From a virus (lineage: Duplodnaviria; Heunggongvirae; Uroviricota; Caudoviricetes), in IMG/VR virus record IMGVR_UViG_637000105_000003: a DNA stretch of 49,246 nucleotides; one strand, 5' to 3'. The notes under the pieces were generated by a model that searched no databases, had not been told where the DNA came from, and saw only the letters and a program-made list of their open reading frames with translations. A program made the translations under genes and the position numbers. Each line of letters opens with the position of its first letter. Within the stretch, counting starts at the first letter, position 1. Shown piece after piece: positions 5,119 through 8,299 of the stretch.

Positions 5119-5435
5119 TCAATCTCCATTGGTATCAATGTTTACAGCCTGACAAGACTCTTTGAGCACCCAGTCAATAGCGTCTTTCCATGCCTCTGTT
5201 TCGACTGGTGGATTTTCACGCTTAACCTGTTCATAGAAGCGCACTGCTTTAACCAGTCCTTCCGGTACTACTGGTGATGGCTGTTTAGCTTCTAAATCAG
5301 CAATTCTGTCAACCACGGCATCGACAGCATCTGAAAAGCCGAACCAGTTGCTCCACTCCGGCTCATCCCCGGTTGCTGCAAAGTACATATCTGCTAAAGC
5401 AGATTCAGCATGGTCACGCTCGTTAATGAGTTGCT
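5119..5435 (-). pseudogene. Ea22-like protein, C-terminal part split from 7845..8299 by IS21-family insertion
   Basis: Reading frame continues exactly across the insertion once the IS and one copy of the 7-bp duplication are removed (...EKSEEQL|INERDHAES...). Confidence 0.7.
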
Positions 5436-5500
5436 TATTAGACGTCAACTAGTTTTGCCGACTCGCGCCAACTATACTGGCCGCACCCTTCAGTGCGACA

Positions 5501-6256
5501 TCAAGTCGCGCTTGTTACTGCCTTCGCTGTCTTTTTCCTGTAGCTTTCACCTTTCAGTTCGAACATATATCCGTGATGGATCAGCCGGTCTGCCGCCGCC
5601 ACCGCCATAGTCTCATCCACGAAGATGCTGCCCCACATGCTGAACGGATGGTTACTGGTTATCACCAGGCTCCCACGTTCATAGCGATGCGCTATTAACT
5701 CGAACAGTACTCCCGTTTCGGCGCTGTCGCGTTTGACATAGCCAAGATCATCCACCACTATCACCCGGTAGCGATCCAGTTTCAGTAGCAGCTCATTCAG
5801 TTTCAACTGCGCTCTGGCTTTACGTAGTTCCTGCAACAACTCTCCTGCGCTGTAGAACCGGGCCCGGTAGCCCTGGCCTACTACGCCATCCACGATCGCT
5901 GCCGCCAGATGGCTTTTCCCCAACCCGCTGGCTCCGAACAGCAGAACGTTTTCTCCTGCATCAACCCAGTCTGTCGTTTCACAGAGTTGCCGGAACTGAG
6001 CTCCATTCAGTTCCGGCACCTGACTGAAGTCGTATTCGCTTAGCGTTTTGGCAACTGGCAACCGGGCCTCCTTTTTATAACGACGCAGTTTTTCACTCTC
6101 GCGCCACAGGAGTTCTTCATTGCATAGCGTCAGAAGATAGCGCGATGGTGTCCAGCCTTCTGCCAGTGCTCGTTTTTCCAGAGCGTGCCATTCAGCTCCA
6201 ACTCGTGTCAGGCGTAGTTTACGCAGGCTGCGTTCAAGGTGATGGATATTGCTCAC
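5501..6256 (-). CDS. istB: IS21-family helper ATPase IstB
   Basis: 251 aa; Walker A GASGLGKSHLA and Walker B VIVVDDLGY motifs. Confidence 0.9.
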   Translation of the reverse strand: MSNIHHLERSLRKLRLTRVGAEWHALEKRALAEGWTPSRYLLTLCNEELLWRESEKLRRYKKEARLPVAKTLSEYDFSQVPELNGAQFRQLCETTDWVDAGENVLLFGASGLGKSHLAAAIVDGVVGQGYRARFYSAGELLQELRKARAQLKLNELLLKLDRYRVIVVDDLGYVKRDSAETGVLFELIAHRYERGSLVITSNHPFSMWGSIFVDETMAVAAADRLIHHGYMFELKGESYRKKTAKAVTSAT

Positions 6257-7752
6257 TGCGAACCTCCCTTGCCACGCAGTAGTTGCTCATAACTGCTCAG
6301 GTTATGCTGTTTCACATTGACTACCGGCAACGCCTTTTCCTTTATACCCAGGAAGCGCATCAGCCGGTGCAGATCCACGTTTCCCGGGGTATTCAGCATC
6401 TGCTCCATACCTTTTGCCACGACTGAGATATCGTCGTATCCTGCAGCCAGTTTCAGAGCATGTACCATCAGCCTGCCTGCCATGTCGGGTTCCAGATGAT
6501 TACATAAGCGACGCCACAGCCTCCGCCATTCATCGTCTGGCAGGATGTCATTTCTCAGCGTTGCATGGCAGAACGCACCGGGCTTTTTTGCCAGACTGTC
6601 GATCACATGTCGGAAGTCGATACGACGGGCCCGCGTCTTCCCTTTTTCTGGTCTGACACGTGGGCAGCTCATGACCTCGCTGCTGCCAACGTAACAGCTC
6701 AGACGATCGTCCCATAACCGGACCCGTAACAGTTGACCTACAAGCCGGGAAGGTACGCTGTAGACGACGTGCTTCACATTGATGGTACTGCTGCGGCTAA
6801 CCCTCACAGTCAGCTCATCATAGTCAGCACTGCGACGAAGCGGCAGCGGTTTCAGATGAAGACGTTCTTCCTTGACCAGATCCTGATTGTTACGGTTGTG
6901 CCGCATAACCTGCTGAGTGATGAAGGCCTGATATTCTTCTATGGTGCTGAAGTCGTTACTGCCCCGCAGTATCAGCGCCTGACAGATACGCCTTTTCAGA
7001 TGTCCGTGGGCACTTTCAACCGAGCCATTTTCGTGGCCCCGACCGGCATTATTGTGTACGCCCTGCATTCCGTAGTGCTGACAGAGAGCAGCATAACGCT
7101 CAGTCAGCTCGCGGCGTCCATCTTCGCCCTGTTGTTTCCATGCTGCCCTCAGGCTGTCCGTTTTATGTTCTACCGGCACTCCGCCCAGTTGTCCGAGGGC
7201 TTCCTGCAGACCTTCAGCCAGAGCAGAGAAGCTCTCACCACCCAGCACAACCCGCATCCAGCTCCAGTGGCTCCATTCCAGACGGAAGTGATACAACTTA
7301 TGCGCCAACAACTTACCGGCGATGGTGACAACTACACCTTTCAGTTCAGTAAAGTCCGACAGACCTCGCAGACCGGGCTGATGTCGCTGGCGGAACATGA
7401 CCTCCTGCTCTGCACCATACTGTAGCTTCCATTCGCGGACCCGCCGTTGCATTGTTCTTCGAAGGCTGTTGGGGTACTGGCCGGGATATTTATCCTGTAG
7501 CATCTCCAGCAGAGTTGTTGGTGTCAGAGCCGGCCTCTCTTTCAACAGAGGAACAAGCATGCTGTCCCACACAGCTTCCAGAGGATCTTTGCGTGTGCGC
7601 CAGTGCCGAACACTGTTTTTTGCCCACTCTCCTTTTTCGATCCGACGACCAGAACGGACTGAGATACCAGCCTTCATGGCCGAGATATGCTGAGTTATAC
7701 CTTTCTTACGCTGAGTCATATAGTAACTGACCTGAGAAGTATTGAGCGTCAC
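6253..7752 (-). CDS. istA: IS21-family transposase IstA
   Basis: 499 aa; N-terminal HTH and DDE catalytic region; overlaps istB start by 4 nt. Confidence 0.9.
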   Translation of the reverse strand: MTLNTSQVSYYMTQRKKGITQHISAMKAGISVRSGRRIEKGEWAKNSVRHWRTRKDPLEAVWDSMLVPLLKERPALTPTTLLEMLQDKYPGQYPNSLRRTMQRRVREWKLQYGAEQEVMFRQRHQPGLRGLSDFTELKGVVVTIAGKLLAHKLYHFRLEWSHWSWMRVVLGGESFSALAEGLQEALGQLGGVPVEHKTDSLRAAWKQQGEDGRRELTERYAALCQHYGMQGVHNNAGRGHENGSVESAHGHLKRRICQALILRGSNDFSTIEEYQAFITQQVMRHNRNNQDLVKEERLHLKPLPLRRSADYDELTVRVSRSSTINVKHVVYSVPSRLVGQLLRVRLWDDRLSCYVGSSEVMSCPRVRPEKGKTRARRIDFRHVIDSLAKKPGAFCHATLRNDILPDDEWRRLWRRLCNHLEPDMAGRLMVHALKLAAGYDDISVVAKGMEQMLNTPGNVDLHRLMRFLGIKEKALPVVNVKQHNLSSYEQLLRGKGGSQ

Positions 7753-7844
7753 GCCATTTCCTGTTGGATCATGTAAATGACACTCAGGTTACAAAACCGG
7801 CCAGAATAATCGGCGCCAGGCGGACTGAGTTATTGTCGTCTCAT

Positions 7845-8299
7845 AGTTGCTCTTCGCTTTTCTCCAGTTCAGCAATACGCTTACCCCCATCCGAGATAAC
7901 ACCTTCGTAATACTCACGCTGCTCGTTGAGTTTTGATTTTGTCTCCTCAAGCTCAACTCTCAGCTTCCCAACAGTAAGAGCAATATCCTCGTTCTCCTGG
8001 TCGCGGCGTTTTATGTATTGCTGGTTTCTTTCCCGTTCATCCAGCAGTGCCAGCACAGTAGCCGGATTGGCTGCGGCGATGAATTCAGCATTGGCCTGCT
8101 GTTCCATTTGGAAATCTTCATCGAAACCGCTTTCTGGATGCGCTCCTTCAATTCTGCAAATGGGAATATATCCAGCAACTTCACGATGAATTAGCGCATA
8201 ATCACCATCAAATCGGCTCTCTCCATATTCGAGCGACCACTCACCACACGTTGCTTTTTCTGCCGCTTCACGCAGTGCCTGATAGTTAATTTCGCTCAC
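7845..8299 (-). pseudogene. Ea22-like protein, N-terminal part; stop codon supplied by the IS end
   Basis: 152-aa ORF MSEINYQALREAAEKA...; Ea22-like identity is recollection; ORF terminates 1-3 nt inside the IS boundary. Confidence 0.7.

Follow-up and report, generated by a model that had tools for sequence, protein, structure and literature searches.

The DNA analyzed here (the window; 49,246 nucleotides, IMG/VR record IMGVR_UViG_637000105_000003) is the icd-integrated lambdoid prophage of uropathogenic Escherichia coli CFT073, to which it is 100% identical. In the CFT073 annotation, the prophage extends from int at its left end to the tail-fibre genes at its right end, followed by sitD. This report concerns an ead/Ea22-like gene in the exo–xis region of the prophage, that is, between exo (window 9251–9931) and xis/int and directly downstream of a gene for a TraR/DksA zinc-finger protein, and a copy of the insertion sequence (IS) ISEc10 that lies between its two parts. 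The features of the locus are the following; the pseudogene calls are those of the Prokaryotic Genome Annotation Pipeline (PGAP).

5119..5429, minus strand: 3′ part of the ead/Ea22-like gene (nt 455–765 of 765), encoding residues 153–254 and the stop, that is, the variable C-terminal domain; pseudogene 'ead/Ea22-like, missing N-terminus'
5430..5435, no strand: GTTGCT, target-site duplication, copy by the istB-side end; single copy in the empty site of ABU 83972
5436..7845, minus strand: ISEc10 (IS21 family), 2410 bp (ends as defined below); oriented like ea22 and leftward pL transcription
5436..5483, no strand: IRR, terminal inverted repeat at the istB-side end, 48 nt; the end TATTAGACG... is kept in all copies
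5501..6256, minus strand: istB, helper AAA+ ATPase, 251 residues; PF01695, 209 bits; NF038214, 266.7 bits (cut-off 200); WP_000065240.1
6253..7752, minus strand: istA, transposase, 499 residues; NF033546, 227 bits (cut-off 160); WP_000174402.1
7798..7845, no strand: IRL, terminal inverted repeat at the istA-side end, 48 nt; final base A at 7845
7846..7851, no strand: GTTGCT, target-site duplication, copy by the istA-side end; single copy in the empty site of ABU 83972
7846..8299, minus strand: 5′ part of the ead/Ea22-like gene (nt 1–454), with the whole PF13935 domain; pseudogene 'missing C-terminus'

The element, the split gene and the empty site

A preliminary description, made from the letters of the window, had reported an IS21-family element that carries istA and istB between imperfect terminal inverted repeats, and the searches bear this out. 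The match of IstA to the NCBIfam profile NF033546 (transpos_IS21) covers residues 12–304, and the protein also matches Mu-transpos_C_2 (32 bits); the IstB translation contains a Walker A (GASGLGKS) and a Walker B (VIVVDD) motif. The istB gene follows istA immediately, in the same direction, and the istA stop and istB start overlap as GTGA at 6253–6256. The terminal inverted repeats (arms 5436–5483 and 7798–7845) are imperfect, being 71% complementary over 48 nt. PGAP names the products 'IS21-like element ISEc10 family transposase / helper ATPase IstB'. Many other copies annotated as ISEc10 match the window copy with 100% DNA identity and share its ends and its length of 2410 bp; the window copy differs from them by its insertion site alone. 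Its IstA and IstB are the commonest ISEc10 proteins and are widespread, and the CFT073 genome has ~7 places that match ISEc10.

Deletion of 5436–7851 (the element and one copy of the flanking repeat) yields a single in-frame open reading frame (ORF) of 765 nt and 254 residues, in which ...EKSEEQL is joined to INERDHAES..., as the preliminary description had predicted. The rebuilt protein matches PF13935 (Ead_Ea22) over residues 2–146 (138–140 bits, cut-off 27, E = 1e−40), in agreement with the Ea22-like identity proposed for the gene. No Pfam family was found for its C-terminal ~100 residues or for the 109-residue C-terminal ORF, and a sequence search of the rebuilt protein against solved structures gave nothing significant (best E = 0.68); as judged by sequence, the C-terminal domain has no detectable relation to any solved structure. 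In published descriptions, Ea22 has a coiled coil between its N-terminal domain and a C-terminal domain that varies (PMC10834534; PMC7093339), and the rebuilt protein has the same order of parts as lambda Ea22 (PMC10834534). Across phages, the N-terminal ~147 residues are widely shared and the C-terminus is mosaic; the unmatched C-terminal ~100 residues fit the published C-terminal variation between phages (PMC7093339; PMC10834534).

The 7-mer AGTTGCT, which the preliminary description had taken as the target duplication, occurs five times on the plus strand of the window and is therefore weak evidence by itself; the empty site is decisive. An intact annotated ead/Ea22-like coding sequence (CDS; WP_001289890.1) matches the rebuilt 765-nt DNA over its full length with 100% identity in ABU 83972, ATCC 25922 and ~100 other complete genomes, clone D i2/i14 among them. 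The matches extend over at least 80% of the rebuilt gene in 127 records, and the best match has at least 99% identity in 105 records. The empty site in ABU 83972 reads ...CGTTAATGAGTTGCTCTTCGC..., with the repeat present once, and a gapless comparison of ~3.1 kb around the insertion site has four mismatches, none of them within the gene. The isolated phage PhiR57_1 encodes a full-length protein that is annotated as Ea22 and is 99.6% identical to the rebuilt protein. The preliminary description had made the existence of homologues a test of its reconstruction, and they are abundant. The prophages of CFT073 and ABU 83972 are 99.84–99.97% identical apart from three IS insertions in CFT073, which are the only large differences between them; the ISEc10 copy is one of the three. 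With the element, its ends, the flanking duplication and the empty site all in view, we conclude that the ea22-like gene of the CFT073 icd prophage was almost certainly split in two by transposition of a copy of ISEc10 into its codon 152.

The ends of ISEc10 and the length of the target duplication

The preliminary description had placed the element at 5436–7844 (2409 bp), between two copies of a 7-bp duplication. AGTTGCT is indeed found at both 5429–5435 and 7845–7851, that is, literally on both sides; what has to be decided is whether the A at 7845 belongs to the target or to the element. Other ISEc10 copies matched 4–5 nt beyond the 2409 bp, divided variably between the two sides, and we compared the ends in two samples. 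The first contains the window copy and 15 further copies at different E. coli insertion sites, taken from the top-ranked BLAST matches to a query extended by 50 nt of flank. The second was collected by scanning species-representative genomes with the right end up to ...CTCAT only, that is, stopping before the A, and contains six copies from other species.

All 15 further E. coli copies start TATTAGACG... and finish ...CGTCTCATA or ...CGTTTCATA; the ends TATTAGACG...CGTCTCATA are common to 16 E. coli copies (the window's included) and the six in other species. The A follows ...CGTCTCAT in 22/22 other ISEc10 copies, all of which end ...TCATA, and it is present in all six matches of the scan with the query that stopped short of it. 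When the A is assigned to the element (2410 bp), a perfect, directly flanking duplication is found in 13 of the 16 E. coli copies (the window's again included), with a length of 6 bp in eight and 8 bp in two, the other three having 4, 5 and 7 bp; when it is assigned to the target (2409 bp), only 3/16 have any flanking repeat. Two matches in the flank-free scan have both ends in reach, and these have 6-bp duplications (CAGGTG and GGTGCC) with the 2410-bp element and none with the 2409-bp element. In the two samples together, a duplication flanks 15 copies (the window's included); a matching A is found on the opposite flank in three of these (20%, close to the 25% expected by chance) and is absent in the other 12. 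Also, counting the A brings the two inverted repeats into register at their very first base (TAT.../TAT...).

A 2409-bp element with a 7-bp duplication is, in the light of these comparisons, very unlikely. The 7-mer on both sides speaks for it, and 7- and 8-bp duplications do occur among ISEc10 copies (7 bp in the copy designated L013; 8 bp in L007 and L017), so a 7-bp stagger beginning with A is conceivable for a single event; however, such an event would need the conserved terminal A to be missing in the window copy alone. Because the A is present in 22/22 copies and the opposite flank lacks it in 12/15, we place the element, as judged from the aligned copies, at 5436–7845 (2410 bp, rather than 2409) and its duplication at the 6-bp GTTGCT; the A at 7845 is the last base of the IS and the A at 5429 a chance match. 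The preliminary description had held that its account would fall if the repeats did not abut the element: formally this is so for the 7-mer, by one base, but the 6-bp repeats directly flank the corrected element. The rebuilt gene is unchanged by the correction, and the ends of ISEc10 (2410 bp) and the length of its duplication (6 bp) are now set by data.

Ranking bias was considered as the source of the A after ...CTCAT and rejected: the A is present in 6/6 copies from the scan that stopped before it, and the logic of the duplications is independent of ranking. We also considered a target-sequence preference, as 6 of the 13 duplications in the first sample end ...CT; this, too, was rejected, because a query that contains flank enriches chance matches to the ...GCT flank of the window, and the CAGGTG and GGTGCC duplications from the flank-free scan do not have this ending.

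The remaining three of the 16 E. coli copies (L009, L015 and L019, in other E. coli genomes) have no matching duplication, or one of 2 bp at most, and their flanks have probably been rearranged. L019 has the left flank of L004 with a different right flank, which points to a deletion mediated by the IS or to recombination of one copy with another; L015 measures 2406 bp and has a frameshifted istA.

IS21, from plasmid R68.45, is the prototype of the family; its target duplication is 4–5 bp, and family members usually end 5′-TG...CA-3′. ISEc10 resembles the prototype in having istA and istB with overlapping stop and start codons, a transposase with an AAA+ helper, long imperfect terminal inverted repeats and a short duplication; it differs in its ends (TAT.../...ATA vs TG.../...CA) and in its duplication, which is mostly 6 bp, with a range of 4–8 bp, in the sampled copies. 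Of the features by which the family is recognized, we found an IstA of the appropriate type, IstB directly downstream, imperfect terminal inverted repeats and a flanking duplication of 4–8 bp; the element begins TATTAG... and finishes ...CTCATA, so a terminal TG...CA is lacking, and CA is found 2 nt inside the istA-side end only. The assignment to the IS21 family is unaffected by this, because TG...CA ends are usual and not strictly defining.

The comparison also turned up relatives of ISEc10. Citrobacter braakii ATCC 51113 (NZ_NAEW01000004; L021, ~1344–1406) has a 63-bp miniature that consists of the terminal 25 nt of each ISEc10 end and a 13-nt filler (TGCGTCAATGCGC), flanked by the 6-bp duplication CAGGTG; it looks like a deletion derivative of the miniature inverted-repeat transposable element type, mobilized in trans. 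A second locus in the same strain (L024, ~3478–3512) has the right end with the same filler and is without the left end. A 6.6-kb scaffold labelled Martelella alba BGMRC 2031 (L023, 676–3085) contains a full-length, 2410-bp relative with 89.7% identity and the duplication GGTGCC; the scaffold is attributed to an alphaproteobacterium, an unexpected host for ISEc10, and contamination or horizontal transfer could account for it.

Gene fragments, age and consequences of the insertion

The segment 5386–7894 has a full-length, 100% identical match in three CFT073 assemblies (NZ_CP051263, NZ_CP058222 and NZ_CP158446), and both junctions are found only in these three among 5,426 complete E. coli genomes. 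Nothing contradicts a transposition of the kind described above. The junctions are supported at the level of assemblies (three independent ones); the ends of ISEc10 are TAT.../...ATA and not the usual TG.../...CA; and the 2410-bp length and 6-bp duplication come from comparing copies. An assembly artefact, in which a repeated IS was misplaced in an ea22 gene that is intact in the real genome, might be suspected, as repeats are a classic source of misassembly and ISEc10 is repeated in CFT073; we give it next to no weight, because identical junctions, at 100% identity, are found in three separate complete assemblies and because transposition, not misassembly, leaves a clean duplication of precisely the 6 bp found in the empty site.

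The two ORFs that now stand on either side of the element borrow their codons from it, as the preliminary description had noted. The stop of the 152-residue ORF is TGA at 7841–7843, inside the IS; its last codon, CTA, has one target base and two IS bases, and the original Leu is kept by chance. The start of the 109-residue ORF is TTG at 5446–5448, also inside the IS, so that the IS supplies the codons for MTSN and the first base of the next one, for K; no ribosome-binding sequence was obvious ahead of this TTG (as read by eye), and the TTG start is therefore treated as a mechanical ORF call. That these ORFs are genuine separate genes with an IS between them has practically no chance of being correct: each has a formal start and stop codon, and proteins of the Ea22 family are built of modules, the N-termini being conserved and the C-termini variable (PMC7093339), but one ORF takes its stop from the IS and the other its start, the TTG has no obvious ribosome-binding sequence, PGAP marks both pieces as pseudogenes, and the uninterrupted 254-residue gene is found with 100% DNA identity in many genomes and also occurs in an isolated phage. 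Thus, the two small 'Ea22-like' ORFs of CFT073 are the two parts of a single gene and ought to be counted as one.

The preliminary description had suggested, from the intact duplication, that the insertion is recent, and the comparisons agree. The junctions are confined to CFT073, the ABU 83972 prophage is nearly identical, the window copy of the IS is matched with 100% identity by many others, and new ISEc10 insertions near lpp have been selected in CFT073 in the laboratory (PMC7482066); on these grounds, the insertion is recent, later than the split of CFT073 from its nearest relatives of sequence type 73. ISEc10 is very probably still active and mobile.

The course of the event can be proposed from what is known of the family. 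In IS21-family elements, the IstA transposase is helped by IstB, an AAA+ ATPase that captures target DNA. By analogy, IstA and target-bound IstB would have made a 6-bp staggered cut at GTTGCT in the ea22-like gene, and repair of the gaps would have duplicated this sequence on both sides of the element. The intact 254-residue protein would have been lost; the predicted 152-residue fragment, which terminates at a TGA three bases into the IS, would retain the Ead/Ea22 domain in full and the greater part of the coiled coil, and the C-terminal remnant would be promoterless, its TTG start being only a mechanical ORF call in the IS end.

A fragment that lacks the C-terminal domain may remain. Polarity on downstream genes of the exo–xis region is possible, as the IS is oriented with leftward pL transcription; in a scan of 5000–8500 for promoters and terminators, the counts were not above those in shuffled sequence, so that the scan does not speak for a promoter directed outward or for a specific polar terminator. 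We consider it improbable that the predicted 152-residue fragment is still made from pL as an altered or dominant-negative version without the C-terminal domain and that the insertion, together with the IS that splits xis (see below), is part of an IS-driven locking of the prophage into the chromosome. A prolysogenic function is known for the Ea22 of lambda and of Shiga toxin (Stx) phages only, that is, of other phages (PMC7093339).

The insertion is an ordinary one and is already annotated, in that PGAP names ISEc10 and marks both flanking pieces as pseudogenes; it has little importance beyond a tidy annotation. The three strain-specific IS hits in the icd prophage of this widely used uropathogenic reference strain are nevertheless relevant to prophage induction and excision and to IS activity in CFT073.

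Other insertion elements and genes of the prophage

The other two insertions are 100% identical, 1310-bp IS3-family elements (window 1233–2542 and 18444–19753) with the ends TGAACCGCCCCGGG..., each of which contains the ALIL frameshift pseudoknot (RF01497; 1568–1684 and 18779–18895). Both are absent from the ~99.9% identical ABU 83972 prophage. The copy at 1233–2542 splits the excisionase gene xis and is flanked by a 3-bp duplication, ATC (1230–1232 and 2543–2545); the copy at 18444–19753 is located between ren and ninB and is flanked by GGT (18441–18443 and 19754–19756). Because xis is split by an IS3-family element, excision is probably compromised anyway, that is, whatever the effect of ISEc10, and the CFT073 icd prophage is probably excision-defective.

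The annotations of CFT073 and ABU 83972 alike give the gene just downstream of ea22 (window 4666–5117, minus strand) as a pseudogene, truncated and with a frameshift; as the lesion is common to the two, it is older damage and unrelated to ISEc10. According to the annotation tables, the tail-fibre gene ('head spike fiber domain') is represented by two CDSs in CFT073 (window ~46939–48264 and 48298–48663) vs one 1725-nt CDS in ABU 83972 and may be disrupted in CFT073. A lambda cIII thermoregulator RNA element (RF01804, 88.5 bits) is located upstream of cIII (window 11322–11380, minus strand). By annotation, the cargo genes of the prophage include an OmpC-type porin and iss (increased serum survival) (window 22632–23714 and 25505–25798, respectively), and the prophage adjoins sitABCD.

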